Shown here: positions 1 through 59,717 of the stretch, one piece after another
Numbering within the stretch: the stretch's first letter is position 1
How the letters are laid out: each line of letters begins with the position of its first letter
Source of the DNA: an uncultured Candidatus Saccharibacteria bacterium
Lineage (GTDB): Bacteria; Patescibacteriota; Minisyncoccia; Phycocordibacterales; UBA2100
Direction: 5' to 3'
Assembly: GCA_964594735.1 (NCBI GenBank)
Contig: CAZQMS010000001.1
Span: 1 to 60,522 of the forward strand
DNA: 60,522 bases
Program-made: the position numbers and the translations under genes
The notes under the pieces: model-generated
Database searches by the model: none
The model's input: the letters and a program-made list of their open reading frames with translations, nothing else
What the model was told of the DNA's origin: nothing

Positions 1-115
1 CGGATTTGAATCGCGTAGGTTTTTTGCTGAGCCGCCTGCTTTTGTATGTGCCATATGGGTAGGGATTAGTTGGTAGGGAGTAGGGTATAGTTAGACCCAA
101 CAGCACAACCAACGC

Positions 116-1111: not shown

Positions 1112-1705
1112 ATGATAGTACTCGACGTAGAAGCGACAGGGGTAGAGCCCCACAAGCATTCGATTGTCAGCCTCGGCGCTTTTGATTTCGCGAATCCGAC
1201 GAATCGTTTCTATATGGAATGCCGCGCGTGGGACGGGGCGCACATTATGGATGAGGCGCTCGCCGTCAACGGCTTTACGCGCGAGCAGGTGACAGATGCA
1301 GGCAAACCCAGCGAAGCCGATTTGACGCACGAGTTCCTGCGCTGGTCGGAGGGGGTAGAGGAGAGGACATTTGCTGGGCAGAACGTGTCCTTCGATAGAG
1401 ACTTTCTCAAAGAGGCCGCGATGCGCGCGGGGCACACAGATTGGCCCTTTGCACACCGCACCATAGATACGCACACGCTTTGCTACATGCACATGATAGA
1501 GCATGGCCTGCAGCCTCCGGTAAAGCATCGTCGGTCGGCGCTCAACCTCGATGCGGTGCTCAACTACTGCGGCATTCCCGAGGAGCCAAACCCTCACAAT
1601 GCGCTTACCGGTGCGCTCTGCCACGGCGAAGTCATATCTCGTCTGCTCTACAGCAGAAAACTCTTGCCGGAATTCGAGGAGTTCGATATACCCTGGAAGA
1701 AATAG
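1112..1705 (+). CDS. DEDDh 3'-5' exonuclease (DnaQ/epsilon-like)
   Basis: The ORF track starts at 1004 but overlaps the HD gene. The internal ATG at 1112 gives MIVLDVEATG (Exo I), QNVSFDRDFL (Exo II) and HNALTGALCHGE (Exo III, DEDDh). Confidence 0.75.
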   Translation: MIVLDVEATGVEPHKHSIVSLGAFDFANPTNRFYMECRAWDGAHIMDEALAVNGFTREQVTDAGKPSEADLTHEFLRWSEGVEERTFAGQNVSFDRDFLKEAAMRAGHTDWPFAHRTIDTHTLCYMHMIEHGLQPPVKHRRSALNLDAVLNYCGIPEEPNPHNALTGALCHGEVISRLLYSRKLLPEFEEFDIPWKK

Positions 1706-1731
1706 ACGGCAGCCTGGAGCGTCCGTAGCGT

Positions 1732-2226
1732 ATGCATACTATTCGTCGACTGGGCACGAAGCTCTCGCTCTTCCTTATCTGGGCTGCAGGGGCATCCCGC
1801 TACTGGCTCACCCTCTCGACGCAGAGCATCAGAGGAGTGCGCGTGATTGTCGTGGATGAGCGGCGCGTCCTCCTCGTCGCGCATTGGTACGCGCCATGGG
1901 CATGGACACTGCCGGGTGGTGGTGTGAGTAAGAACGAATCACCGGAAGATGCCGCGATGCGCGAGGTCAGAGAGGAGACGGGTCTTCGGGTGCGCTCGCT
2001 TGGTGGCACGGTAGGTACGTATGAGGGCACGTGGGGTCGGCATGATCTTGCGGTCGTCTACTGGACCGGCGACTTCGAGGGCTCGCTCGCACTCAAACCA
2101 AATCTAGAAATCATGGCACGCAGTTGGTTTGATATCGACACGCTGCCGGAAGAGCTCTCACCAGCCAATCGCCGCCGCATACATGCGTATCGCGATGGTG
2201 TGCGAGAGGAGAACGGAAAGTGGTAA
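1732..2226 (+). CDS. NUDIX hydrolase
   Basis: 164 aa with Nudix box LPGGGVSKNESPEDAAMREVREETGL. Confidence 0.85.
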   Translation: MHTIRRLGTKLSLFLIWAAGASRYWLTLSTQSIRGVRVIVVDERRVLLVAHWYAPWAWTLPGGGVSKNESPEDAAMREVREETGLRVRSLGGTVGTYEGTWGRHDLAVVYWTGDFEGSLALKPNLEIMARSWFDIDTLPEELSPANRRRIHAYRDGVREENGKW

Positions 2227-2250
2227 AGGACGTTTTGTTATACTTGTTAC

Positions 2251-2406
2251 ATGAACAAGTGGCCGAACGGTACCGGTATTGCAATAGGAATAGCGATTGG
2301 TCTCGCCATAGGGACGGCTATCGACAACATCGGTGCTGGGATAGCCATCGGAGTCGCAATCGGAATTGCAATTGATATGCAAAAGAAAAGCAAAGGCGAT
2401 GAATGA
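2251..2406 (+). CDS. small glycine-zipper membrane peptide (51 aa)
   Basis: Below the 60-aa cutoff of the ORF track. ATG 2251 to TGA 2404-2406. Translation: MNKWPNGTGIAIGIAIGLAIGTAIDNIGAGIAIGVAIGIAIDMQKKSKGDE, with repeated GxxxG/AIGIAIG zippers and a charged tail. The 75-aa antisense track ORF (2247..2474) looks like its shadow. Confidence 0.45.
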   Translation: MNKWPNGTGIAIGIAIGLAIGTAIDNIGAGIAIGVAIGIAIDMQKKSKGDE

Positions 2407-2745
2407 CTCCCCCGAGCTTTGAAAAGGGGAGGGGTGGATTGAGGTGAAATTTGGTACAGAAAAAACCTCAACAAAATTTCTTAGAAAATATTTTTTAACT
2501 GGCAGCAGGTGAGGGAGAGGGGTTGACACGAACTCTGCGAGCCGTGTTGTGGTGTGGATAACTCTTCATCTTCTCCCAGGGCGGCATGTCGCACAATATA
2601 CCTTTTGCGACACATACGCCTAGGTAAAGCCGCGCATTGCGCGTACACTCCATGCAGCCGTACGGTCTTTCGTGTCACTTCGGATTGTGCGGCTCTACAG
2701 CAGCAATTCGGCGGCTGTAGGTGCAACTTATCCCCCAACTACGTG

Positions 2746-2802
2746 CCCGGTCGCGCATCCTGCTTGTATCTACAAGCGAGATGCGGATCGGGCTTTTTCT
2801 TT
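2746..2802 (+). terminator. intrinsic terminator-like long hairpin plus T-tract
   Basis: cccggtcgcgcatcctgcttgta..tacaagcgagatgcggatcggg (about 20 bp imperfect stem) followed by ctttttcttt. There is no T-run on the opposite strand. Confidence 0.55.
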
Positions 2803-2848
2803 GCCGCATCCCCTACCGCGAAATTTTGCTTTTTTCGAGGGAGCCGCA

Positions 2849-3406
2849 TCAGATCTCTAAACTGCGCCATTTGGCGTAGGCGGTATCGAACTTTGTTCTG
2901 TTGAAGGTTACAACTGAATAATTTCTAACAGTTCCATCAGCCTGATCCTTGCTGAGTACACCTATCAGGTCAAAAATCAGGTTTGGAAAATCCTTCCTGT
3001 TTCCGGTCATGATGACAGAGTTTGGTGCATGGAGAGCCGAGCGTCCAGCCAGGAATAAGTCCACGACGCTAGCACCTTTACAACCATTATGGCCGTATAG
3101 ATAAGACAGTGTATATGCGTTTGCACGCACCTGTTGCACTACGGTCTGGTGGTCGACTGCGGGTATAAAAACCTCGTTGGCTAGGAATGATTCTTTGACA
3201 GCTCGTTCAGATGGCAAAAATACAGTTTGTAAAAACTCGAAGCGAGTTAGCGGGTCTATCAGCAGTGCCGCCTTCTTACTAAGCTCAAGAATTTGCGCCA
3301 GACTTTCATAATCGATGGCGAGAGCGGATAGAAAATCGTTGTCTAGGAATATGTACTTGCCCGCAAGTGAATCCTCAGTTAGCCCTGAAGAGACCACGAA
3401 GCTCAT
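2849..3406 (-). CDS. PIN-like domain protein (putative toxin/RNase)
   Basis: 185 aa. Acidic PIN-type positions are IFLDNDFL, VVDLFLAG and MTGNRKDF. Spot counts of 60-nt lines give about 37-42% GC, against about 55-60% in the flanks. Confidence 0.55.
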   Translation of the reverse strand: MSFVVSSGLTEDSLAGKYIFLDNDFLSALAIDYESLAQILELSKKAALLIDPLTRFEFLQTVFLPSERAVKESFLANEVFIPAVDHQTVVQQVRANAYTLSYLYGHNGCKGASVVDLFLAGRSALHAPNSVIMTGNRKDFPNLIFDLIGVLSKDQADGTVRNYSVVTFNRTKFDTAYAKWRSLEI

Positions 3407-11950: not shown

Positions 11951-12676
11951 CTATATGCCGTACCGCGGTACGCCCGTACTCTCCAATTCTATCGTAATAT
12001 CTTCAAAAAGTTTCTCCTGGCTCACACTCGCGGAGCCGCTCCTCACAAGTTCGAGCATGGCCAAGAAGTACACGATGGTGTCGTACTTGTCTTTGGACTT
12101 TGTGAGCTCACTGAAGCGAGCTCTGAACGCGGTAGTGAGGCGTTGCTTGAGGCTGACTATCACGTCTTCCAGCGCGAGGACTGGTGCGACAGCGGCCTTG
12201 GCGAGCTGCTCCGGCTTTGGAAGCATGTTCATGAGTCTCGTTCCCGCAGCAAAGATGCTCTGTACGCTTGATTCCGCGGGAGAGAACACGGGAGGACGCA
12301 GAGGCGCTTTGCGCGGGAGCGCAAGTGGCGCAAGACCCCACTCATGCCGCAGCAGCTTTGCGGCTTTGCGAAAGAGTGCGTAGCGCGCGAGACGTCGCTC
12401 TAATTCTTCGACGGATTCTTTTTCCTCTTCGGAAAGTGTCAGAGTGGGCAGGAGCGTGCGGGATTTGATGAGGAGTAACGTCGAGGCGACGAGAATGAAT
12501 TGCGATGTCTCGGCGAGTGGGAGCTCTGGCAGCTTCTCTACATAGGCAAGGTACGCGTCGGCGACCTCAGCGAGTGATACATCGGTGATGGAAAGCTTGC
12601 GCGACTCGATGAGGTCGAGCAGCGCCTCGAGTGGTCCCTGAAAACGCTCGGTCTCTATGCTAAAACGATTACTCAT
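11951..12676 (-). CDS. scpA: segregation and condensation protein A
   Basis: FQGPLEALLDLIESRKLSITDVSLAEVADAYL. I use the ATG at 12676; the track ORF begins at a GTG at 12688. 8-nt overlap with the aspS stop. Confidence 0.85.
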   Translation of the reverse strand: MSNRFSIETERFQGPLEALLDLIESRKLSITDVSLAEVADAYLAYVEKLPELPLAETSQFILVASTLLLIKSRTLLPTLTLSEEEKESVEELERRLARYALFRKAAKLLRHEWGLAPLALPRKAPLRPPVFSPAESSVQSIFAAGTRLMNMLPKPEQLAKAAVAPVLALEDVIVSLKQRLTTAFRARFSELTKSKDKYDTIVYFLAMLELVRSGSASVSQEKLFEDITIELESTGVPRYGI

Positions 12677-14024
12677 GTTCCTCGCCACCTTCCTCTGAGA
12701 GTAGCTGGTCGATGCGGTGCATATCGCGCGGGAACATGGCCGCTTCGCGGATGTTCTTGAGGTTTAGAATCTGCATCGTCATGCGCTCTGCGCCGAGAGC
12801 AAAGCCACCTTCTGGCGGCGCCCCATAGCGGAAGGCTTCGAGAAACATCTCGATCTTCTTCGGGTCCATCCCCCACATACCTACGTGGTCCATGAGTTGC
12901 GCGTAGTCGTTGATACGACGGCCGCCGGAGAGCCACTCGACGCCGCGGCACAGGAGATCCATGCCTTCATTGAAGTCTGGATTCTCCGGATTCGGGTACA
13001 CATAGAAGGGCTTCTGGCGCGTGGGATAGCCGTAAACGTACACAAAATCCGACCCCGTTTCCTCTTTGAGAATCTCACAGATGGCGCGCTCGTCTTCTGG
13101 GTTGAGGTCTTTCTCGCCGCGTGAATCGCGACCCGTCTTTTGAAAAATCTTCTCTTGAGCTTCGGTGAGAGAGAGCGTCGGCGTCTCCTCAATCATGGTA
13201 GGCAGTGTAGTACCCAGAAGTTCCAGTTCACGAGCGCATTTTTCGCCGACCTGCTGCAAGATGTAGCGAACCGTGTTCTCTGACATGTCACGTACATCGC
13301 GCCACGAATCGATAAAGCTCATTTCGGCGTCGAGGGACACAATCTCGGTGAGGTGTCGCGTTGTGGCGCTCGGCTCCGCGCGGAACACTTTGTTGACGGA
13401 GAATACCCGCTCGAATGCGGTCATCACGATTTGCTTGTAGAGCTGGGGCGACTGCGTGAGGTAGGCCTTCTTATCGAAATACTTAACCTCGAATACTTCA
13501 GCACCTCCTTCGGCGGTCGCAGGAGCAATAGCCGGCGCTTGGAATTCGAAAAAGCGCTGCGACTTCATGTATTCTCGGAAGGAATCAATGATGACCGCCT
13601 GGACTTTGAAGATGGCTTGCAGGCGCGGATGACGCAGCGTCAGCGCACGGTGGTCGAGCTCTGTGGGGAGGTCGAGGTTGAATCCGTCGAGCGACATGTC
13701 GAATGGCAGTGGCTCTGCCTTCGCGAGCACCGTGAGCTGCAGGACTTCTAGCTCGATATCACCGTTTTGTACTTTCGCATTCTTGTTCTTCTCCGGTCGC
13801 TCATTGACCTTGCCCTCTATGGCCACGACGTACTCGAGTCGCGTCTCCTTGGCTATCTCTATGGCCGCGCTCGAAGGAAGCACGACACCCTGGACGGTGC
13901 CTGTCATGTCGCGGAAATCAAAAAAAACCATTTTCCCTTGGTCGCGGCGCACCGACACCCATCCCTTGATGAGCACGGTCTCCCCTATCATTTTGCCGAG
14001 GTCTTCGATGTATGTTCTTTGCAT
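12669..14024 (-). CDS. aspS: aspartate--tRNA ligase, short (archaeal/type-2) form; AsnRS not fully excluded
   Basis: 451 aa class IIb enzyme. N-terminal OB fold (VRRDQGKMVFFDFRD), FRAEPSATTRHLTE and GGFALGAERM. The SGGRRIN motif favours AspRS over AsnRS. Confidence 0.75.
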   Translation of the reverse strand: MQRTYIEDLGKMIGETVLIKGWVSVRRDQGKMVFFDFRDMTGTVQGVVLPSSAAIEIAKETRLEYVVAIEGKVNERPEKNKNAKVQNGDIELEVLQLTVLAKAEPLPFDMSLDGFNLDLPTELDHRALTLRHPRLQAIFKVQAVIIDSFREYMKSQRFFEFQAPAIAPATAEGGAEVFEVKYFDKKAYLTQSPQLYKQIVMTAFERVFSVNKVFRAEPSATTRHLTEIVSLDAEMSFIDSWRDVRDMSENTVRYILQQVGEKCARELELLGTTLPTMIEETPTLSLTEAQEKIFQKTGRDSRGEKDLNPEDERAICEILKEETGSDFVYVYGYPTRQKPFYVYPNPENPDFNEGMDLLCRGVEWLSGGRRINDYAQLMDHVGMWGMDPKKIEMFLEAFRYGAPPEGGFALGAERMTMQILNLKNIREAAMFPRDMHRIDQLLSEEGGEEHE

Positions 14025-14028
14025 AGGC

Positions 14029-14964
14029 TTAAATGGTGAGTCCGATTTTTGCTCGTACGTCTGTCATTTTGGCGACCGCGCGCTCGCGTGCCCTCGCCGC
14101 GCCGTCTTTGAGAATTGCCCGCACGTCAGCATCGCTAATGGAATTTCGTTTCTCGCGCATGGGTGCGATAAACTCGTCGAGGTCTTCTATAAGCGCCTCT
14201 TTGAGTGACTTGTATTTACCCTTGTAGGATTCGTAGAGCGATTGAAGCTCTCCTTCATTCTTCACGACGCGGTGAATCGCGTACACGTTCTCCGGCCTAT
14301 CGCCCGTCGAATCGGTGACGATACTCATGACGGCAGCCGCTATCTCCTCGCGCGTACCAAAAAGCGGGATGGTATTGCCGTAGCTTTTGCTCATCTTTTT
14401 GCCATCGGTACCCGGGACGGCCGCAACTGCCTCGATGATGCGCTCCTGAGGCTCTTTAAATGTCTCACCAAATGCGTGGTTGAATTTTGCCGCAGCCTCC
14501 CTAGCGTACTCGACATGCTGTTTTTGATCGGCGCCGACAGGCACGATATCGGTGTCGTAGAGAAGTATGTCCGCAGCCATAAGCATGGGGTATGCGAAAA
14601 GTCCTGCGTTGGCCTCGAGGCCTTTTGCGACCTTGTCTTTGTATGCGTGCGCCTGCTGCAAGAATGGGACCGTCACGAGGCACTGGAAAATCCAGCCGAG
14701 CTCTGTGTGCTCGGGCACATCTGACTGGCGGAAAATCACCGCGGACTTCGGGTCGATACCCGCGGCGATGTAATCCCGCGCAACATTGAGGATGTTGCCG
14801 CGAAGCTCTGCAGGATTCTTGAGAGTCGTAATCGCATGGTAATCAGCGACCATGAGCATGCTGTCGTACTCACCTGCAAGGTCGACGAAGGGCTTAAGCG
14901 CGCCGACATAGTTGCCGATATGTAGTGCGCCGGATGGCTGCAGACCTGTAAAAATACGCTTCAT
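14029..14964 (-). CDS. trpS: tryptophan--tRNA ligase
   Basis: 311 aa. GLQPSGALHIGNY (HIGH) and KMSKS. Confidence 0.95.
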   Translation of the reverse strand: MKRIFTGLQPSGALHIGNYVGALKPFVDLAGEYDSMLMVADYHAITTLKNPAELRGNILNVARDYIAAGIDPKSAVIFRQSDVPEHTELGWIFQCLVTVPFLQQAHAYKDKVAKGLEANAGLFAYPMLMAADILLYDTDIVPVGADQKQHVEYAREAAAKFNHAFGETFKEPQERIIEAVAAVPGTDGKKMSKSYGNTIPLFGTREEIAAAVMSIVTDSTGDRPENVYAIHRVVKNEGELQSLYESYKGKYKSLKEALIEDLDEFIAPMREKRNSISDADVRAILKDGAARARERAVAKMTDVRAKIGLTI

Positions 14965-14994
14965 AGGCGTATATGATAGCAGAAAACGACCGTT

Positions 14995-15864
14995 TTAGCG
15001 GGTCTCTGTGGCGGGCGCAGTCGCCTCATCGGCGCGCACGTTGACGAGGACGATGACAATAAACAAGGCGAGTGAGAGCACGAAGTGGTTGCCCATGCCG
15101 GCAATGTCTGTGAGCAGGTCCCAAATCGCGACAGGAATGAGCGCAAAGAGTGCGGTCACGTACGACATACCGTAGGTAAACTGCACGCCTTTCAGTCGCG
15201 CCAAGAGCCACACGATAAGACCACCGAAGAGTGCGACGAAGAGGTACCCGAGTACGGCGACCGCAAGAAGTACCACAAAAATAACGAACGGAGCGACACC
15301 AACAACGATGCTCACTATAGGCCGCGCAATCTCGACGAGAGTATCAACGGTCCCGCGATCTATGGTCTGGTTCTCGATGCTCGATACGTCGACGTACTGG
15401 TACGAGATGTTGGGCGGATTGCTGCCTCGCATTTCGTATTTGTTGATGAATACGAGCGTGCGCTGTGTGAGGTAGAGAACAGCGCTATCGTCGAAGAGTT
15501 CATCCACTGTCACGTCGGGTCTCGTGTCGATGACCGCAAGGTGCTCTGGTGTGGAAGAGCTCAAGAATTGCGGCGGCATCGCGACGTAGTATGGCTGCTC
15601 GACATTGGCACTCGCTTGCCCGTCTTCAATCGTAATGACGAGCTCCTCGGGATAAATATCCGCGAGGCGATTGAGTACGTCGTTTTGCTGAAATGCCTGT
15701 ATGGCAACGAACGCCATGACAGAGAGGACGAGCGCCCACAGTACCGAAATAGCTGTAAGTGCACCGAGTGGCTTCCCTACCCTGGAGGAGCGATTCTCGC
15801 GGTAAAACGCAGGATTATAGAAGCTGTTCTGGATAGTATCGAATGTTCTGCGAATGAATCCCAT
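14995..15864 (-). CDS. DUF1189-like polytopic membrane protein
   Basis: 289 aa. N-terminus FYNPAFYRENRSSRVGKPLG followed by TM segments; C-terminal multi-TM region. Confidence 0.55.
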   Translation of the reverse strand: MGFIRRTFDTIQNSFYNPAFYRENRSSRVGKPLGALTAISVLWALVLSVMAFVAIQAFQQNDVLNRLADIYPEELVITIEDGQASANVEQPYYVAMPPQFLSSSTPEHLAVIDTRPDVTVDELFDDSAVLYLTQRTLVFINKYEMRGSNPPNISYQYVDVSSIENQTIDRGTVDTLVEIARPIVSIVVGVAPFVIFVVLLAVAVLGYLFVALFGGLIVWLLARLKGVQFTYGMSYVTALFALIPVAIWDLLTDIAGMGNHFVLSLALFIVIVLVNVRADEATAPATETR

Positions 15865-15897
15865 ATGTGACTACTGTGACATGAATAGACCGGAAGC

Positions 15898-17532
15898 TCA
15901 ACCGTGTCGAATGCCGGTGACCGGAAGCTCGACCGTGAAGCGTGAGCCCTTGTCCTTGCCATCAGACTCTGCCCAGATGCGCCCACCATGCCCTTCGACA
16001 ATGGTTTTCGCTATGAAGAGTCCGTAGCCCGTCGAGTGGACGTTGATTTTCACTGACTCGGCTCCCTTGCCGCCTTCGGTGAATAGATTCTTCATGTCTT
16101 CCGCGGTTATGCCGACGCCAGTGTCGCTCACAAGGAGCCGCACAATGCCGGCGCTTCGTTTGAGTTCCACGTGCACACTTCCATGGAGCGTGTAATTGAT
16201 GGAATTCTCTACGAGGTTGCGAAGCACATGTCGTCGGAGCTTGTCTTCATCGCCGAGAATCAGAAACTCTCCCTGCGGTGCCGCAAAGAAAAGTTGGAGC
16301 CCGCGTGCGCGCGCAGCTGGTGCGAGGCTCGAAACAACATCGTCGACCGCTTTCGCAAAGTCGAACTGTCGCTTCGCAAATGAGACTGTGCCCCGCTTCA
16401 AATTCGACGCATCCAGAATATCGATAACTGTATCGACTCCCTTGCGCACGTCAGTCAGCGCAAGACCCGACATCTCATGGAGCTTCGGCGAGACTTGCCC
16501 ATAATCGCCCGAGAATATGGCGGCGAAAGCTGCCTCGCTTTTTGTAAGATACCCCTTCACCTCATGGCTGATGAAGTGCAAGAGACTCTCCTGTTGCCTA
16601 TTGGCCTCCCCGAGTTCTTCCGCCTGCTTCTGAATAATTTCCCGCTGCTCGACTTCCCTACGCACACTCTGAACAAGAAAATAACCAAAGATTCCCACAA
16701 ACAGAAAGATAAGAGCGTCAACGACTGCAGCTTCGACAGTTCTCTCGGTAAAAATCTTCGCGAATAGGACTACGCAAATGGCAAGCGTAATCGCCTGTGT
16801 CACGAGTACTTTGATATTAAAAAGCTGATATTTCGTAATCGCGTATGCCGTAAGCCCGAGAAATACAAGTGTGTACAGTGGCGTAAAGGGTAAGAACACA
16901 AGCGAGTTGAAGAACAGGACCGGGACGAGAATAGTGAGAGTGATGAGGGCAAGCATCAAGAGTATTCCTAGCAAAACGGAACCGAGCTGCCGTCTTGTTA
17001 CCTCAGTTCCCTTTAGGTACTTCTTCAAAAGCAAGTACACGGCGAGTACACTAAAGAGAGTAGAAACAATAGAAAAGGGGGCAAGGCCTGGCCCTGGGGT
17101 GAGTTGAATCGCACCATTTGATAATTCCACGCCTGTAAAAGCAAACGGCGACAGGTTGAGAATCATCATGGCAACTGTAGCGCCCAGTACTGAGTAATAT
17201 GAGCGCTTCGACAGCTGAATCTTTCTATGGGGTATCGTGTGGGCGAGAAGAAAGAAAAGTGCGCTCATCGGTGCTGCGAAAAAAATGCCAAATCGACCGA
17301 CGAGCAATGTGAGTTCTGAATATTGAGAATATATTGATATATGGCCAGTTATGTAATTATTCAGAAGCCAGAGCGATGTAGTGATGCTCAGCATTACGAA
17401 AATGACATTAGTTGCACTTTTTGAATCGCTACGGAAAACCCCGTACGCCAAAAACCCGTTCGTTACGAGTGCTACGACTAGCAGCACCAGCTCAAGAGAC
17501 GGGCTCAAAAGCATGAGGCCGGGAATATTCAT
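15898..17532 (-). CDS. sensor histidine kinase with N-terminal 7TM sensor domain
   Basis: 544 aa, about 7 TM helices. H-box FISHEVKGYL, N/G boxes (NLVENSINYT, DTGVGI, GYGLFIAKTIVEGHGG). The TM-coding part is only about 33-42% GC by spot count. No response regulator lies nearby. Confidence 0.85.
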   Translation of the reverse strand: MNIPGLMLLSPSLELVLLVVALVTNGFLAYGVFRSDSKSATNVIFVMLSITTSLWLLNNYITGHISIYSQYSELTLLVGRFGIFFAAPMSALFFLLAHTIPHRKIQLSKRSYYSVLGATVAMMILNLSPFAFTGVELSNGAIQLTPGPGLAPFSIVSTLFSVLAVYLLLKKYLKGTEVTRRQLGSVLLGILLMLALITLTILVPVLFFNSLVFLPFTPLYTLVFLGLTAYAITKYQLFNIKVLVTQAITLAICVVLFAKIFTERTVEAAVVDALIFLFVGIFGYFLVQSVRREVEQREIIQKQAEELGEANRQQESLLHFISHEVKGYLTKSEAAFAAIFSGDYGQVSPKLHEMSGLALTDVRKGVDTVIDILDASNLKRGTVSFAKRQFDFAKAVDDVVSSLAPAARARGLQLFFAAPQGEFLILGDEDKLRRHVLRNLVENSINYTLHGSVHVELKRSAGIVRLLVSDTGVGITAEDMKNLFTEGGKGAESVKINVHSTGYGLFIAKTIVEGHGGRIWAESDGKDKGSRFTVELPVTGIRHG

Positions 17533-35239: not shown

Positions 35240-35266
35240 CGGGGTCCCCAAATCTTGGGGACCCCG
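35240..35266 (-). terminator. intrinsic terminator after the multi-HTH gene
   Basis: cggggtcccc-aaatctt-ggggaccccg, a perfect 10-bp stem 11 nt past the stop. On the minus strand it is followed by atttcgtttg. Confidence 0.7.
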
Positions 35267-35277
35267 TGCTGAGCCCT

Positions 35278-37008
35278 TTAGCGGGCACGTTTGACGAAGT
35301 GCAGTTGGACGATAGAGCCCGTGCCGTCTTCGGTCGGAACGGTCGTGAGGTGTTCCGGTCGAAGTCCGAGCTTTCGCAGTCGCTCGATATCTTCTTCGAA
35401 GACATCGGTGTTGCCGTGGCTATTGATGAATCTCGTCACCACATGCACGCCGCAGATGCTGTCGTTATCACTAAGCGGGATGACGACCGGAGGTGCAAAC
35501 CTAACGCTTGCGATGACTGTCGGCTCGGGTGCTTTGCTTACAGACTCCTCAGGCTTCGATTGCGGAGCTTCGACCGTATTTATCACGGCCGGAGCTTCGA
35601 AGGTGCGTGTAGGCTGTTCCTCGACCGGAGGAAGGGACTCGGCAGGAACATTCGGCTCCTTCGAGGCAGACTCCCCGGTCTGGGTCGTAGCTTCCACTTC
35701 CGCATGTGCCAGCCTGCCTTTGTACCGGCCAAAGGCAACTCCAAGGATTCGCTGACGCTCCTTGCGGCCTACACTCGCTGGCAGTCCGAGCTGGTCATAT
35801 ACCTCTCCCATGCAGTTACTGAGATACGTGGACGTAATGCCGAGTTGTGCGGCAGCAACCTCACCATTTCTGTAGCCAGCGCGCACGACCGCTTCGACCA
35901 TCACCCTCGCTTTCGACGAGAGAGATGCGATACCGTCGGCGAGGCGTTCGATATCATCGCCGGTACTTGCAACCGTAGTAGCAGCCCGTGACTCACCGCT
36001 GGAGATCTGCGCCGAATTGCCACCACTCTGTTTGCGACCATTCCGCTCGTCGGCCGACAGCTTCCACGCGAGTGAGAGGAGCACTGCCCGCCGAGCCTGG
36101 GGCATCTGCATCGGGAACCCCAGTTCGGCATGAATCGTCGAGAGGTAGCTTTTCAGCGTTGCGTCCGCGAGGCCGAGCTCTTGTGCAACCTGCGGCCGAG
36201 CCTGCTCCTGAAAGTCGTGTGCGGACATCGCTTCAAGTCTTTTCAGCTTGTGCTCACCGAGCTTGAGAATACTCTCTGCGAGTACACGGATGTCGATTTC
36301 AGACACATTTGGCATCGTCGGCCTTTCGTCGACCGTCGCCTCCTGCGAGGCACCGATCAGGGTCTTGGGCACGGCTGTCGTGGTCTCCACTGGTGCCTCC
36401 TTGGGTTGCATCGTGACTGGCATTTGCGCCGCGTGAGATGTACGGTTGATTACCTCCACGGCTTCGCGAACTGCTGTCCGCCGCTGCTTTTTCAGCTTTT
36501 TCGGAAGTCCTAACGCGCCGTACAAGCGTGCAACAAGCTGGCCGGCGTTGTTGACGTCGGTCTCGAGACGTATCGCGAGCTGAAAGTTGTCGAGGCCTGC
36601 CCCGATGTACTCGGCGATAGCACGTAGTTCCGGACTGAGACCACGGATGCGCCGAACGACAAAGTCGATCGCATTTTGCCGGGACGCACTTTGCGTCGTC
36701 GGCTCGAATGTGTGCGCAACCCGCTGCGCGGGCTTGTTATACGCGACACGCTGTCCAGTGTTGACACGTTTAAAGTACTCGTTGTAGGCCTCCTTCGTGA
36801 ACCACCTTCGCGCGTCGATGCTCGGAATGCCGTAGATGCCGAGCTTTACGTGAATTGCGCTTTCCAACTGAGAGACCTTGAACTCGGTGACATTCAACCG
36901 TTTTGCGATCTCCGCATGCGCGGCATCTTTCACGAGCCACTGTACCGCCATAATTTCATCGGCTGATAGAGTGGTCAGACCCTTCACCCGCTCTTCAAGA
37001 GGCTGCAT
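35278..37008 (-). CDS. protein with four tandem LuxR/GerE-type HTH modules plus an unknown C-terminal domain
   Basis: I use the ATG at 37008, which is preceded by aaaggggg about 8 nt upstream (576 aa). The track ORF runs to 37143, and another ATG lies at 37086. See the findings for the four repeats. Confidence 0.7.
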   Translation of the reverse strand: MQPLEERVKGLTTLSADEIMAVQWLVKDAAHAEIAKRLNVTEFKVSQLESAIHVKLGIYGIPSIDARRWFTKEAYNEYFKRVNTGQRVAYNKPAQRVAHTFEPTTQSASRQNAIDFVVRRIRGLSPELRAIAEYIGAGLDNFQLAIRLETDVNNAGQLVARLYGALGLPKKLKKQRRTAVREAVEVINRTSHAAQMPVTMQPKEAPVETTTAVPKTLIGASQEATVDERPTMPNVSEIDIRVLAESILKLGEHKLKRLEAMSAHDFQEQARPQVAQELGLADATLKSYLSTIHAELGFPMQMPQARRAVLLSLAWKLSADERNGRKQSGGNSAQISSGESRAATTVASTGDDIERLADGIASLSSKARVMVEAVVRAGYRNGEVAAAQLGITSTYLSNCMGEVYDQLGLPASVGRKERQRILGVAFGRYKGRLAHAEVEATTQTGESASKEPNVPAESLPPVEEQPTRTFEAPAVINTVEAPQSKPEESVSKAPEPTVIASVRFAPPVVIPLSDNDSICGVHVVTRFINSHGNTDVFEEDIERLRKLGLRPEHLTTVPTEDGTGSIVQLHFVKRAR

Positions 37009-37127
37009 GTGTATACCCCCTTTTTCAGGTCGTCGGACCGCATCGTCCGGACCTACTGTCGCGTACGGTACCACCTTGCTCTTCATAATCAAGCGTGGCA
37101 GAGTTTTGTCAGACACAGGGGGAGAAG

Positions 37128-37934
37128 ATGCATACCAGCACATTCGACTTCGATACTGAAATGCTCAAATGCGGGGCCTCGCTTAAGGCTTTCGCAATCA
37201 GTCTCACTGGCAATGTTGATCGTGCCGAGGACCTCGTCCAGGAGACAATTCTGCGGGCGCTCGCCAATCGGCATACCTTCGAACCGGGAACAAACATGCC
37301 CGCATGGCTATTCACAATCCTGCGCAATTTTTTTCGGTCGGAATACCGGAAGCGCAAACGTGAGGTTGAGGATGCAGATGGCGCACATGCTCAGACGCTC
37401 ATATCTCAGCCGAGTCAGCAGGGGTATGTAGAGTTTGGCGATTTCGCAGAAAAACTTCATGCACTGCCGGATGATCAGCGCGAGGCACTGATACTGGTAG
37501 GCGCAAGCGGCTTTTCCTACGACGAAGCAGCTCTGATTTCCGGTTGTGCAGTTGGCACAATAAAAAGTAGGGTGAACAGAGCACGGGAGCGCCTTACGCT
37601 ACTACTTTCAGAAGAACCGACGAGGGCGGTACCAGCTGATCGCGATCCATATGGCGTTCGAAACACGCAGCGACAGTTGTACAACTACTTTCCGCCGAAA
37701 AGGCTCGTCGCAGAATCGACCTCGCGCACACCGCCACTGGCCCTACACAGCGAGCCGTCCACTGCGAGTGAGAGCAAAATGAATGAGGTCGTCGCTTCTC
37801 CTCAGCCAAACATCCCGCTGGCTGTCCAAGGTAAGTCTGCAGACATCGTAATTTCCGGGCTGCGATTTGTGCTCCAGTCAGTTCGACCGCACGATGCGGG
37901 CCGGAAAGTATCGACGTACTCGCTCTCTGTGTGA
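37128..37934 (+). CDS. ECF-type sigma-70 family factor with a roughly 100-aa C-terminal extension
   Basis: The ATG at 37128 is preceded by gggggagaag. Region 2: DRAEDLVQETILRALANRHTFEPGTNMPAWLFTILRNFFRSEYRKRKRE. Region 4: LPDDQREALILVGASGFSYDEAALISGCAVGTIKSRVNRARERL. About 105 further residues follow before the stop. Confidence 0.85.
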   Translation: MHTSTFDFDTEMLKCGASLKAFAISLTGNVDRAEDLVQETILRALANRHTFEPGTNMPAWLFTILRNFFRSEYRKRKREVEDADGAHAQTLISQPSQQGYVEFGDFAEKLHALPDDQREALILVGASGFSYDEAALISGCAVGTIKSRVNRARERLTLLLSEEPTRAVPADRDPYGVRNTQRQLYNYFPPKRLVAESTSRTPPLALHSEPSTASESKMNEVVASPQPNIPLAVQGKSADIVISGLRFVLQSVRPHDAGRKVSTYSLSV

Positions 37935-37941
37935 ACAATGG

Positions 37942-37975
37942 CACCCCCTCGCTTCGGCGCGGGGGTGTTCGCTTT
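37942..37975 (+). terminator. intrinsic terminator after the ECF sigma gene
   Basis: caccccctcgc-ttcg-gcgcgggggtg (10 bp, one mismatch, UUCG loop) followed by ttcgcttt, 8 nt after the stop. Confidence 0.65.
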
Positions 37976-46601: not shown

Positions 46602-47624
46602 TTACTTTGCGAGCGCGTATTTGCCATCGCTCTGGCGGACGAACATCGGATTCTGGAGATTGACTGCGATGGTCGCGTCTTTGACGTAACGCTCGCGTTT
46701 TACCCTATCGACGATTTCTTCGCGCGTCAGTGCGCCCTCTCGCTCGAGAATGCCGCGTATCACATCGCGCACGACACCCGGTTCGTAGCCCCACTCTTTG
46801 AGTGCGTACAGGCCCCGTCCCACGAGCACAAAGCGACCGTCCTTGATGAGTTCATTGTGCGTGGTCGCAGGATGTGTCTCGCGCCCGAAGAGCTTCTCGA
46901 TGCCTTTCGCCACTTCGGTGAAGTGCATGGGTGAACCATGGCGCTTGAGCGTGAGGTAGGCAAAGTCGCGGGTGTTCTTGATGCGCACGTGCGGAGACTC
47001 GGTGCGACCCCACTCCCCGAGCGGGTTGCGGCCAATGCGCTTCGAGATGTGCAGCCATCGAAGCATGACCTCGTTGTCGCGCCCTTTTACTCCAGCCTGG
47101 CGAAGATGCTTGCCAAATGCCGCGAGGAATTCTTCCTCCGGCGTGAGCTTGTTGGACTCGAGTGACTCGTACAGATTCGTGAGTGCCTCTTCCACCTGCT
47201 CGGCGAGCTGCTCGTCGATGTGCCAGCGCGTCTTGAAGTCCGCATTCTCGCGCCTGTCGTCGAAATGATGTCCGACGGTAAGAAGAAAAATGACATGGTT
47301 GTGGTCCGCATCGTTCTTTGCGACATGGCCGAGGAGCGACTCCTGCGAGAGGATGCCGCCGAGCGTCTGTACTGCTTTTTTGAGCTCTTCGAGCGCGTGT
47401 GCAAACTCAGCGTATGCATCAGAATCGCGCACCGCAGCGATACCATGATTCTCAATCTGGCGGATGCGCTCTCGCGTAATGCCGTATTCCTGACCAATAG
47501 CATCGAGCGTGCGCTGCTCACCCTTCGGCGAGAGACCGAAGCGGTCGATAAGCACCTTGCGGGAACGCTCAGGAAGCTCCGAAAGGAGCTCTTTGGTGAT
47601 GTTCTTGGGGGTAAAGCTAATCAT
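46602..47624 (-). CDS. DNA-binding protein with a sigma-70 region-4-like HTH and a HARE-HTH-like C-terminal domain
   Basis: 340 aa. LPERSRKVLIDRFGL...RTLDAIGQEYGITRERIRQIENHGIAAV (sigma r4-like). C-terminal MHFTEVAKGIEKL...HNELIKDGRFVLVGRGLYALKEWGY (RpoE-delta/HARE-HTH-like). Confidence 0.6.
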   Translation of the reverse strand: MISFTPKNITKELLSELPERSRKVLIDRFGLSPKGEQRTLDAIGQEYGITRERIRQIENHGIAAVRDSDAYAEFAHALEELKKAVQTLGGILSQESLLGHVAKNDADHNHVIFLLTVGHHFDDRRENADFKTRWHIDEQLAEQVEEALTNLYESLESNKLTPEEEFLAAFGKHLRQAGVKGRDNEVMLRWLHISKRIGRNPLGEWGRTESPHVRIKNTRDFAYLTLKRHGSPMHFTEVAKGIEKLFGRETHPATTHNELIKDGRFVLVGRGLYALKEWGYEPGVVRDVIRGILEREGALTREEIVDRVKRERYVKDATIAVNLQNPMFVRQSDGKYALAK

Positions 47625-57100: not shown

Positions 57101-57652
57101 CTACAGAGCCATGATTCCTGCCTTCTCGCGCATCATCCTGCTGAGCTTCTCGATGCCGCGATGGATGCGTACCGATACCACGTTTTCCGAAACACCAAGC
57201 GCGGCAGCTATCTCACGCGGCGACATTTCATCGAGGTACCGCATCGTGATTGCGGTGCGGTAAATCTCATCGAGCGATTCAAGCAGCGCGAGTGCATCGC
57301 CCAGCGCTTTCTTGTCGACGGGTTCTGGGATACTATCATCGCGCACTTCGAAGCCGTCGTCTTCCATCATTGCATCGAGCGACGCAGACTTCTTTCTACG
57401 CGACCCGTCGACGATGAGGTTGTTGGCGACGCGGTAGAGGAACGCGCGGATGTAATCAATCTTCTTGCCTTCGGTGAGGTACACCCATGTCCGCGAATAG
57501 GCCTCTTGTACAATATCTTTGGCTATCTCTCGATCACGCACACGTATCAGGCAATGCCGCAAAAGCGCATCGGCATGTTCTTCATACGCGGACATGAAGG
57601 TCCGCTCGAGCTCGAGAGCCCACGCATCTTGCCGGGTTGTACGTTTTTTCAT
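57101..57652 (-). CDS. ECF-type sigma-70 family factor
   Basis: 183 aa. Region 2: DIVQEAYSRTWVYL...YIRAFLYRVANNLIVD. Region 4: YRTAITMRYLDEMSPREIAAALGVSENVVSVRIHRGIEKL. Confidence 0.85.
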   Translation of the reverse strand: MKKRTTRQDAWALELERTFMSAYEEHADALLRHCLIRVRDREIAKDIVQEAYSRTWVYLTEGKKIDYIRAFLYRVANNLIVDGSRRKKSASLDAMMEDDGFEVRDDSIPEPVDKKALGDALALLESLDEIYRTAITMRYLDEMSPREIAAALGVSENVVSVRIHRGIEKLSRMMREKAGIMAL

Positions 57653-57787
57653 TGAAGCATCAAGAAAAGCAAGCGGATTGTGAGCATTGTATGAATATGC
57701 GCGGAAAAACTAAAAAAGCCGACACTCCTGACGATGTCGCCTTTCCCGCCTCACCATGGTACATGCCAGTCGCGACCACATCAAGCT

Positions 57788-57818
57788 GGAAAAAGAAAAG
57801 GCCGCCCCCCGGACGGCC
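57788..57818 (-). terminator. intrinsic terminator after the 57840..58274 gene
   Basis: Minus strand: ggccgtccggggggcggcc followed by ttttctttttcc, about 21 nt after the stop. Confidence 0.5.
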
Positions 57819-57839
57819 CATTTCTCGATGCGTGGTCAC

Positions 57840-58274
57840 CTACGACCTTTGCACATCGAGCTTTGCAAGTAGCATCATAAGATTTTCCGGCAGCTGTTCG
57901 CTCACACCTAAGTGTTCGCGCAACTGCTTCCCCACCTCGTCGGACGCGGCCTGGGCGGCTCTCCGAATGTCCCGACAGGTATGTTGGAGCTCGTGAATCG
58001 ATGCTCCAAAGCGGAACTTGATGTGCTTCTCGAGCGCCGGGTCGTTGTCGACCAGTTTGCGCAGCGCTTCCACAAAATCAGGGATGTATCGTACGTCGGT
58101 CTTCTCGAGCAATTTGCCGTAAAAGATCACGGCTTCAGGCTCAAGCCGACCCTCGCAGAGTGGCTTGAAGTAGCGCTCGAGAACCGCAATGTCCGAGCTT
58201 CCACTCGGGTGCTTCGCGATAACGAGCGTCCCTTCAAGTGCAGAGCGGGGTATCCTCTTGGTTTCAGTGAACAT
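57840..58274 (-). CDS. hypothetical protein with a NepR-like anti-sigma motif at the C-terminus
   Basis: 144 aa. aaggag lies 9 nt before the ATG. The C-terminus SDEVGKQLREHLGVSEQLPENLMMLLAKLD resembles the NepR signature (IGxxLRxxY....E.lP..f..LL..L). The N-terminal 100 aa are unassigned. Confidence 0.5.
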   Translation of the reverse strand: MFTETKRIPRSALEGTLVIAKHPSGSSDIAVLERYFKPLCEGRLEPEAVIFYGKLLEKTDVRYIPDFVEALRKLVDNDPALEKHIKFRFGASIHELQHTCRDIRRAAQAASDEVGKQLREHLGVSEQLPENLMMLLAKLDVQRS

Positions 58275-58318
58275 AGGGAGAACTCCTTTACGCTAAAAGC
58301 AATTCTCCCCCCATTGGA

Positions 58319-58346
58319 ATTATAGATGTGTGAACACTCCATGCAA
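58319..58346 (-). promoter_or_regulatory. candidate promoter (TTGCAT-16-TATAAT) for the NepR-like gene
   Basis: Minus strand: ttgcat, then ggagtgttcacacatc, then tataat. The -35 lies inside one of two CCTTGCATG direct repeats. Confidence 0.4.
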
Positions 58347-58409
58347 GGCTCATTTTCATGCAAGGATGTAAAAAACGTGGTGCAAAGCGGGACAGGTACG
58401 AGCGCGACG

Positions 58410-59465
58410 TCAAAACAGCTTTGTATTGGGATATTCAAGGGATACCCGCGTACCTTTGCCAGAGCTCGTCGAGACCAATTCGGCGCCTAGCTGCCTCGCG
58501 AGCGAGGCCACAATGCTCGTGCCAAGACCTTGGTGCTCGTTCGACTTGGTGTACCCGATGCCGTCATCTTCTATGACAAGGGTCCACCTGTGATCCTGTA
58601 CACGATAGCTGATGACCACACTGCCTCCCTTGTCGTCGGGAAAGGCATACTTGAGGGCGTTTATAACCAGTTCGGTCGTAAGAAGCCCGAAACTTATCGC
58701 ATGTTCGGCAGTCACCGTGCCTGCGTCCGCATCGACACGAATCGTTATAGGCCTTCTACCGCCTATCATCGACTTTTCCAGCCCACTGCAGAGCGCTGTC
58801 AGATAGCTGGACACACTGACACTATCATCCATAAGACCAGCAGGATCGAGGTGCCGCTGCACGGTAGCCATCGACATGATGCGACCGCGCGCATCTTCCA
58901 AATGAAGCCGTGCCTCATCGGACGCCACAGTGCCAGCTTTCAAAAGCAGAATGCTCGCAATCAACTGCAAACTATTTGCAATGCGATGACGCATCTCATT
59001 GATGAGGGTATTCTTCTGCTCGACGACTTTCTCGAGCTCGCGCTCAGTAAGTCTTTGACTCGTGACATCGTGGATTGAAAGGAGCATTTTCTTCCTTCCA
59101 TTCTCATACCTGATTTCGCATGCATTGACGAGCATGACGCGGTTGCCGAGCGTAATGAAATCGTGATCCACCTGGTAGTCCTCGACTGTCGCGTGCTCGG
59201 GTATGACCTGCTCTAAAAGCTGTCGCAAGGCGGGAACATTCCACTCGCCATTGCCGATTTCGTAAAAAAGCTTGTCGCGGGTGACTTCGTGCGTCATCCC
59301 AAATTTTTTATAAAAGGAGCGACTCGCGGCTATGATGCGCAATTGTTCATCGAGTACAATAAGTGGCTCTCGAATGGTGTCTATAATCGCACGCGTGAGA
59401 ATATGACCATCCTTTGGGTCACCTAAGGGGTCTCGAACCCCTCGGTGTTTGATCACAAGCTCCAT
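58410..59465 (-). CDS. cytoplasmic PAS-domain sensor histidine kinase, HisKA_2/HWE type
   Basis: The ATG at 59465 gives 351 aa. PAS: IIDTIREPLIVLDEQLRIIAASRSFYKKFG. H-box EMRHRIANSLQLIASILLLK. ATPase region LVINALKYAF, RWTLVIEDDGIG, GLGTSIV. No TM segments. Confidence 0.85.
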   Translation of the reverse strand: MELVIKHRGVRDPLGDPKDGHILTRAIIDTIREPLIVLDEQLRIIAASRSFYKKFGMTHEVTRDKLFYEIGNGEWNVPALRQLLEQVIPEHATVEDYQVDHDFITLGNRVMLVNACEIRYENGRKKMLLSIHDVTSQRLTERELEKVVEQKNTLINEMRHRIANSLQLIASILLLKAGTVASDEARLHLEDARGRIMSMATVQRHLDPAGLMDDSVSVSSYLTALCSGLEKSMIGGRRPITIRVDADAGTVTAEHAISFGLLTTELVINALKYAFPDDKGGSVVISYRVQDHRWTLVIEDDGIGYTKSNEHQGLGTSIVASLARQLGAELVSTSSGKGTRVSLEYPNTKLF

Positions 59466-59717
59466 AGTATACCTATCCTGCGTGAAAGCGAGGTGAAGCA
59501 GAATGAACGGACTAGTTGCAGTCCAAGGGGAGGTCACGCATACCTTGCTCGCCGTCGCTCGCATACTTGCCTGACCACGCCTCGCATCGCTTTTATCTGT
59601 TGCGGACCCTACGCGGCTGGGAAACCCACGGTTTTCCCAATCCTTCCTCCACGGGAAAACGGCAGTTTTCCCGACCCCTTTCTACGCTAGGGTCCATCTC
59701 CTCACTTCATTCGTCGG

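Follow-up and report, generated by a model that had tools for sequence, protein, structure and literature searches.

A predicted array of LuxR-type helix-turn-helix modules encoded divergently from a tailed EcfG-type sigma factor in an uncultured Patescibacterium

We describe a pair of divergent genes on a stretch of 60,522 nucleotides (nt) from an uncultured Candidatus Saccharibacteria bacterium of the phylum Patescibacteriota (assembly GCA_964594735.1, contig CAZQMS010000001.1). The whole stretch is called the window here, and positions refer to it unless another contig is named. On the minus strand, at 35278..37008, it codes for a protein of 576 amino acids (aa), P0001, with four helix-turn-helix (HTH) modules of the LuxR type, linkers and a C-terminal domain; this gene, which we call the array gene, is defined by its open reading frame (ORF), ribosome binding site (RBS), translation and colinear homologues. 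On the plus strand, at 37128..37934, lies a gene for an extracytoplasmic function (ECF) sigma factor of 268 aa. Judged by profile comparisons and a structure model, the array protein would be a new variant among the known LuxR-type HTH proteins. The reading that we favour, with about as much trust as doubt, is that of a transcription regulator which binds DNA multivalently, belongs to the LuxR/NarL/FixJ class and is functionally tied to its partner sigma factor.

An earlier note on this DNA, made from the letters alone, had pointed out four LuxR/GerE-like repeats, which map to residues 14-68, 124-177, 250-307 and 363-420 of P0001. The similarity among these repeats is weak to moderate (pairwise z 1.8-6.7 versus shuffled sequences). 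From 51 modules of other family members, excluding P0001 and its homologues P0003 and P0004, a leave-out hidden Markov model (HMM) of the module was derived. It finds exactly four domains in P0001, at residues 5-80, 115-185, 237-317 and 351-431, with 22.1, 49.5, 38.6 and 53.0 bits, compared with 4.8 bits for the best of 500 shuffled sequences. Together with the family profiles described below this bears out the presence of four modules. An AlphaFold model, computed from a two-sequence alignment, likewise contains four modules of five helices each, at residues 1-88, 106-194, 240-329 and 350-442, with a predicted local distance difference test (pLDDT) of 80-88, and the segments between them are disordered. 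These linkers are acidic; the modules are mildly basic, with a mean net charge of +3 in the family and of +7 in the second module of P0001.

The modules, all on the minus strand, are of different types. R1 (aa 1-88, 36745..37008; pLDDT 80-90) belongs to the first-module type and groups with the first modules of other members in a module tree. It is the only one to meet the Pfam GerE threshold, exactly at the cut-off of 23.5 bits. R2 (aa 106-194, 36427..36693; pLDDT 78-85) falls into the R2-type cluster of the tree and has a conserved DVNxAGxLVxxLYxALGL helix as well as a basic KKLKKQRR patch. R3 (aa 240-329, 36022..36291; pLDDT 80-85) shows a T-L-K-x-Y signature, and R4 (aa 350-442, 35683..35961; pLDDT 73-85), a type of module that occurs in every family member, adjoins the C-terminal domain. 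Taken singly, R2, R3 and R4 yield marginal matches to GerE, Sigma70_r4 or other HTH models, below the Pfam threshold. The expectation that the repeats would be recognised one by one by Pfam thus holds for R1 and fails for the other three, whose LuxR assignment comes from the family profiles.

When the eight modules of P0001 and P0003 were combined into one profile and compared with the PDB, DosR was found at E 4e-5, followed by ChrA, EL222 and FixJ. With a profile of 47 family modules, DNA-binding domains of the NarL/FixJ type are matched at E 1.4e-10 to 6e-8 (LiaR/VraR-like, EvgA, DosR, ChrA, NarL, GerE, FixJ and EL222), and the best sigma region-4 matches are SigK at 5.7e-6 and SigL at 1.8e-5. 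By this profile the NarL/FixJ-type domains are closer to the modules than sigma region 4 is, by about five orders of magnitude. A Foldseek search with the whole model of P0001 gave no significant E-values, as the flexible linkers of the chain would lead one to expect; the proteins listed are sigma factors and LuxR/FixJ proteins, and local alignments with a probability of 0.99 were obtained to GerE (TM 0.67 on the target) and EL222 (root mean square deviation 2.8, 76 columns). According to these profile matches and the predicted structure, each module would be a LuxR-type four-helix HTH with one extra helix in front, and the "RR" patch to which the earlier note had drawn attention corresponds to the conserved arginine preceding the fourth LuxR helix. 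Reading the sequence against the profile alignments, we find the canonical T-x-K-x-(H/Y) signature of the recognition helix retained by R3 only.

Scans of Pfam and NCBIfam detected no receiver and no known ligand or autoinducer domain in P0001, as had been presumed before. Nor was there a match to PhyR_sigma2, PhyR_sigma-like or Sigma70_r2, or a PhyR chain among the PDB profile matches, and searches of PHROGs and PADLOC returned generic HTH-level matches only. Within the window, a six-frame scan with the HMMs of the module and of the C-terminal domain detected the array gene alone and no paralogue of it. A 340-aa sigma-r4/HARE-HTH protein at 46602..47624 was considered as a paralogue and rejected, as it is not among the 28 family matches.

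The conserved C-terminal domain extends over aa 506-576 (35281..35493, minus strand), as seen in an alignment of 25 sequences and in the AlphaFold model (pLDDT 88.9, predicted template modelling score 0.71). With about 70 aa it is shorter than the 90 aa or so that had been estimated before. In the model it has the order strand-helix-strand-strand and is preceded by a conserved extended PPVVIPL segment; the family motif reads GPGVxIxL..P..I..V.VVSG ... G[FL][RK]PE.LV..P..DP....Q.VFVKR. It has no match in Pfam, including ACT and Response_reg, and a fold search of PDB and BFVD returned nothing at E <= 0.001. There is a weak similarity to the ACT domain of IlvH (profile E 0.0068; fold E 0.084, TM 0.37, probability 0.97); the ACT fold has the order strand-helix-strand-strand-helix-strand, and the domain described here is predicted with one helix only. 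A weak fold resemblance also exists to small phage proteins of the DUF1737-like and DUF4177-like kinds. We treat the domain as new, on the grounds of these sequence and model comparisons, and its most plausible role would be in oligomerisation or ligand binding.

A repeat of transcription activator-like effectors (TALE) was considered as well for this domain, the whole chain matching TAL effectors at E of about 1e-28. This identity was rejected, because the score accumulates from some 5 bits for each repeat, with no single significant stretch, and the segment is predicted as strand and not as helix. TALE repeats are 33-35 aa long and consist of two helices. The segment aa 548-566 of P0001, G-L-R-P-E-H-L-T-T-V-P-T-E-D-G, resembles the GLTPEQVVAIASHDGG core of TAL repeats. 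The resemblance suffices to inflate the summed scores and is probably a coincidence.

To what extent these features are shared by other proteins was addressed by an exhaustive HMMER search over 1.84 billion cluster representatives (E <= 1e-3). It returned 28 proteins, 25 of which have one architecture in common: one to four modules, an acidic linker rich in Pro, Ala and Glu, and the conserved C-terminal domain of about 70 aa. The number of modules ranges from one to five if matches at E 0.01-0.03 are included. Single-module members consist of a last-module type and the C-terminal domain. By sequence comparison, one HTH module and the C-terminal domain make up the family's core, to which zero to three position-specific modules have been added N-terminally. 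In the module tree the sequences group by position or type (first-module, R2, last-module) and not by protein. This indicates that the array was assembled from old paralogous modules which were gained and lost, and not by a recent expansion of repeats. At the orthologous locus, which has the order M16 peptidase, sigma, array, alaS, four modules are present in the window and in the contigs L001 and L002, and two in L011.

The closest relative, P0003 (563 aa), is colinear with P0001 at 46% identity and was the sole homologue obtained from a word-indexed search of 5.8 billion proteins. P0004 is full-length and colinear at about 32% identity, with both the modules and the C-terminal domain kept. 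The family is rare and unnamed, and known from metagenome-derived contigs and metagenome-assembled genomes. Two members only carry a taxon name, both as "hypothetical protein", from Candidatus Adlerbacteria and Candidatus Paceibacterota. Pattern scans of the GTDB representative genomes revealed no relative, and metagenomes of the Joint Genome Institute (JGI) gave one family locus, L009. The window itself is present in groundwater and other metagenome runs; a search for RNA runs found none. On L007, the contig of P0007, a run of genes at 12399..16770 codes for HemC, HemD, a chlorite-dismutase-like protein, HemE and ferrochelatase. Such a set would be unusual for a Patescibacterium, so that the host range of the family may exceed the Paceibacteria.

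Three further proteins combine such modules in other ways. P0008, from a JGI contig and named there as a CsgD-family regulator, has 1407 aa with about 12 tandem LuxR-like modules and no C-terminal domain; at its N-terminus a JAB/MPN-like motif (HSHPSG...S..D) was read by eye. In P0023 (428 aa, from a Logan contig) an R2-type module is fused to a putative ParB/Srx-like domain with a GERRWRS box, also read by eye, which suggests that the R2-type module is used in DNA-binding contexts. P0034, encoded at 1597..2421 (+) of L002, has 274 aa and two modules of the same family without the C-terminal domain.

The start codons of the array gene and the sigma gene lie back to back, 119 nt apart, in line with the distance of about 120 nt given earlier. 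This arrangement is not peculiar to the window: in 11 of 13 contexts examined an ECF sigma gene is divergent from the array gene at a distance of 100-126 nt (the window, L001, L002, L003 (partial), L004, L007, L009, L010 (partial), L011, L012 and L014). Four of these, L007, L009, L012 and L014, have no other synteny with the window. In the context of P0014 an ECF sigma gene adjoins the array gene as well, in convergent orientation, and in that of P0024, a contig of 2.4 kb, no sigma gene was seen. P0027, a relative without the C-terminal domain, has no sigma neighbour. The linkage to an ECF sigma gene, by which the earlier note had proposed to judge its idea, is therefore conserved, with 11 of the 13 contexts divergent and one more adjacent but convergent, and its recurrence across otherwise unrelated contexts speaks for a partnership that is specific. 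In the contexts examined the pair has no recurrent neighbour resembling an anti-sigma gene, and no small gene adjoins the sigma gene of the window, hence there is no adjacent nepR. On L004 a called plus-strand ORF of 239 aa without Pfam match (2327..3046) is spurious; the real gene is on the minus strand at 2351..2986 and codes for an ECF sigma factor with the conserved C-terminal tail.

The sigma factor of the window matches Sigma70_r2 and r4_2 of Pfam and PRK12540 and PRK12547 of NCBIfam; its gene is preceded by the RBS GGGGGAG. Its best match in the PDB is the RpoE of Bartonella quintana bound to NepR (5uxx_A; residues 5-161, 174 bits, E 3.2e-50), with SigH following at 1.6e-19. On the basis of this difference in sequence similarity we regard it as EcfG-type. 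A passage of PMC3892343 describes EcfG as exclusive to the Alphaproteobacteria. The sigma core comprises about aa 1-165 and is followed by a variable linker, so that, as noted before, there is a long C-terminal extension, of about 100 residues beyond region 4. All eight complete divergent partner sigma factors carry such an extension, of 45-135 aa, which ends in a motif of about 30 aa with alternating hydrophobic residues. In the window this tail has about 31 aa (ADIVISGLRFVLQSVRPHDAGRKVSTYSLSV, 37839..37931, plus strand). Its alignment is loose, without an invariant column and with a mean column identity of 33%. The tail has no relative in the PDB, and the extension shows no SnoaL, TPR, Cys-rich or RCE/D signature. 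That the tail might be a shortened copy of the array C-terminal domain, as a chance alignment had suggested, was rejected (hhalign probability 0.1).

The window codes for a second ECF sigma factor (183 aa, 57101..57652), which has no such tail and is not EcfG-like; its best PDB matches are SigL and SigW at about 1e-14. It belongs to an operon at 57101..59564 (-), together with a PAS-HisKA_2 kinase and a protein of 144 aa at 57840..58274, which has a weak match to NepR (E 0.032). The EcfG-like sigma gene is 20 kb away from this operon. An EcfG-type promoter of the form GGAAC-N15-18-CGTT has no match in the window.

Alignment of the 11 intergenic regions between divergent array and sigma genes revealed one conserved block of about 40 bp, at 37065..37104, which is unique in the window. 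It contains two predicted promoters. The one for the array gene, on the minus strand, has the -35 element TTGATT at 37087..37092 and the extended -10 element TGGTACCGT at 37065..37073; the one for the sigma gene, on the plus strand, has the -35 element TTGCTC at 37076..37081 and the extended -10 element TGGCAGAGT at 37096..37104. A strict pattern, TTGNNN-16..18-TGN[T/C]ANNNT, is matched on both strands in seven of the 11 loci, compared with 2e-4 of shuffled sequences, and in the remaining four loci the aligned blocks, inspected by eye, show close variants. In the clade of the window the -10 element on the sigma side always starts with C (TGnCAnnnT) and that on the array side with T. The -35 hexamers interleave at a distance of 5 bp, and about 53 bp separate the predicted start sites, which lie near 37058 on the minus strand and near 37111 on the plus strand. 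Two polymerases therefore cannot bind at once, and the predicted promoters would exclude each other. We conclude from the alignment that both genes are transcribed from interleaved promoters which exclude each other and are of a predicted housekeeping, that is sigma-70-like, type. A palindromic operator formed by the dyad CACGCTTG...CAAGGTG was also considered and rejected, since it is fully covered by the -35 and extended -10 elements.

For the regulator that we favour, the following course of events may be envisaged. The C-terminal domain would let the array protein oligomerise and perhaps sense a ligand, and the HTH modules would attach to DNA in or close to the shared promoter region, to the target promoters of the sigma factor, or to both. 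The array protein would thereby set the amount of the sigma factor or its site of action, and control would be mainly transcriptional and not by sequestration. Among genes for bacterial transcription factors, a position divergent from the target gene is the arrangement most often found. Several observations weigh against this reading. Only in R3 does the LuxR recognition helix have its canonical lysine; small or polar residues take this place in R2 and R4. No operator is visible in the conserved intergenic block, all conservation of which is accounted for by the two promoters. Moreover, a purely transcriptional model explains neither the conserved tail of the sigma factor nor the conserved C-terminal domain of the array protein.

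These last two features would find a place if the array protein acted on the EcfG-type sigma factor at the protein level, as a soluble anti-sigma factor, an anti-anti-sigma decoy or a tether in a PhyR-like logic, its C-terminal domain docking the sigma tail and its modules competing, as region-4-like surfaces, for a NepR-like anti-sigma factor or for RNA polymerase. LuxR HTH domains are homologous to sigma region 4, and the module profile indeed matches SigK and SigL at about 1e-5. The partner is closest to a NepR-bound RpoE, the divergent layout mirrors that of phyR and nepR-ecfG, no anti-sigma gene adjoins the pair, and the window holds a HisKA_2 kinase and a weakly NepR-like protein, with PhyR not found there. 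The tail, present in eight of eight complete partners and missing from the other ECF sigma factor of the window, co-occurs with the C-terminal domain of the array protein and is otherwise unexplained. However, the modules fit NarL/FixJ domains better than region 4 by about five orders of magnitude, P0001 has neither a receiver nor a sigma-2-like part nor a PhyR_sigma2 or PhyR_sigma-like match in Pfam, and members with one module can hardly mimic a sigma factor. The tail shares no homology with the C-terminal domain. Anti-sigma genes are normally co-transcribed with their sigma genes, whereas the promoters here are predicted to be mutually exclusive. We therefore consider an action at the protein level possible but rather doubtful. 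It also seems improbable that the array protein is a general multivalent organiser of DNA, or a regulator of many sites, which shares with the sigma gene nothing but a bidirectional control of expression. Tandem modules on flexible linkers would suit the bridging of several DNA sites, their number varies at the orthologous locus between four and two, and a specific operator was not seen at the array's own locus; yet the family, with some 25 clusters among the 1.84 billion representatives, is very rare, is almost always linked to a sigma gene across unrelated contexts, and has position-specific, conserved module types unlike those of a simple repeat expansion. Finally, low-complexity, disordered linkers and a single close homologue in the word-indexed search might raise the suspicion that the ORF is a fusion, a frameshift product or a decaying pseudogene of small HTH genes. 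This is hardly credible in view of the two colinear full-length homologues, by which the artefact mentioned in the earlier note is refuted, the same architecture in 25 clusters, the clean RBS, promoter and terminator, and the recovery of the sequence in contigs of an independent run with a word share of 0.99.

Comparison with known systems places the locus as follows. With the LuxR/GerE domains (PF00196; DosR, NarL, GerE, EvgA, EL222) the array modules share a profile match of about 1e-10 and, probably, the predicted fold. Known proteins of this kind have one C-terminal copy after a receiver or ligand domain, whereas one to four N-terminal tandem copies are found in the array family; further differences are the new small C-terminal domain and the lack of the canonical lysine in three of the four recognition helices of P0001. 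In Alphaproteobacteria phyR lies divergent from nepR-ecfG. The array gene resembles this PhyR-NepR-sigma(EcfG) system in its orientation relative to an EcfG-type sigma gene and in the occurrence of a HisKA_2 kinase and a weakly NepR-like protein in the window. It differs in that the array protein is devoid of a receiver or sigma-2-like domain and no nepR is adjacent; the C-terminus of PhyR is a receiver, that of the array protein the strand-helix-strand-strand domain of about 70 aa. Also in contrast to the EcfG system, a GGAAC-N16/17-CGTT promoter is missing from the window, the sigma gene's own promoter looks sigma-70-like, the sigma factor is extended at its C-terminus, and its host belongs to the Patescibacteria and not to the Alphaproteobacteria.

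Genes of the groups ECF130 and ECF201 adjoin genes for HTH proteins (PMC7826278). Such transcriptionally controlled ECF sigma factors without an anti-sigma factor are comparable to ours in that an orphan sigma gene lies beside one for an HTH protein, by which its transcription could be controlled, and that a C-terminal feature, possibly regulatory, is present. Here, however, the sigma factor is of an EcfG-like group, its HTH partner is a multi-module array with a conserved domain of its own, and the tail is a structured motif of about 30 aa and not a short degron. Regulatory C-terminal extensions are known from ECF41, ECF42, ECF29 and ECF238 (PMC7826278, PMC8999054). These too consist of a sigma core followed by an extension, with no cognate anti-sigma gene, but the sigma factor described here has a long variable linker and a short terminal motif and co-occurs with a dedicated partner gene. 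As to the promoters, passages of PMC12825309 and PMC10268837 describe bacterial bidirectional promoters as pseudo-symmetric regions which engage RNA polymerase in either direction, one binding event excluding the other. The principle of exclusion is the same in our locus, with a different geometry, as the -35 hexamers are interleaved 5 bp apart. In the class described so far it is reportedly the two -10 elements that overlap.

Some details of the two genes remain to be given. The array gene has the RBS AAGGGGG 7 nt 5' of the ATG at 37008. Longer reading frames exist, 602 aa in the NCBI record P0035 and 621 aa at maximum, with start codons at 37084..37086 and 37141..37143 (-). Since these starts fall inside or upstream of the predicted array promoter, and since both homologues, P0003 and P0004, start at the corresponding Met, we favour the ATG at 37008, which gives 576 aa. 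The gene has its own intrinsic terminator, as stated before, with a 12-bp stem including nine G-C pairs and a T-rich tail (35266..35240, minus strand). After the sigma gene, where a terminator had been proposed too, a hairpin was indeed found (37946..37965, plus strand), but with a 7-bp stem and a weak T tail it is weaker and terminator-like. The predicted 5' leader of the array transcript holds a bulged 10-bp hairpin (AGGTCCGGAC...GTCCGACGACCT, 37026..37055, minus strand), and the folding of the 65-nt leader gives -22.8 kcal/mol (z -2.35). Similar hairpins were seen in L001 and L002 only and not in distant members, therefore a family-wide element was rejected. The spacer between the sigma gene and the M16 peptidase gene is 276 nt long and free of ORFs in the window; relatives carry extra small regulators there. 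On L002 this is the two-module protein P0034. On L011, a protein of 125 aa encoded at 1427..1804 (-) consists of sigma region 4 only.

How Patescibacteria regulate their genes has hardly been explored, and ECF sigma factors without an anti-sigma factor are a recognised open problem. The locus described here is a compact, conserved unit of two genes, a tailed EcfG-type sigma factor and a LuxR-type array that is built of modules and has a new domain, and it places an EcfG-like sigma factor outside the Alphaproteobacteria. It indicates that LuxR-type HTH domains can form position-specific arrays, of which no description was found in the literature searched, and it offers a natural example of divergent promoters which are predicted to be interleaved and mutually exclusive. 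As a speculation to which we attach little weight, the array protein and the tailed sigma factor might together be a hitherto unknown control module free of an anti-sigma factor. The C-terminal domain would capture the sigma tail, and the modules would either serve as a built-in activator, by tethering the sigma factor to the DNA in front of its promoters, or keep it from RNA polymerase as long as no signal is received. The promoters would act as a toggle, and the whole might be a Patescibacterial replacement for the PhyR-NepR switch. A docking of the tail onto the C-terminal domain, if it occurs, would make this a sigma regulator of a new class. Altogether, the locus points to an undescribed way of controlling an EcfG-like sigma factor.

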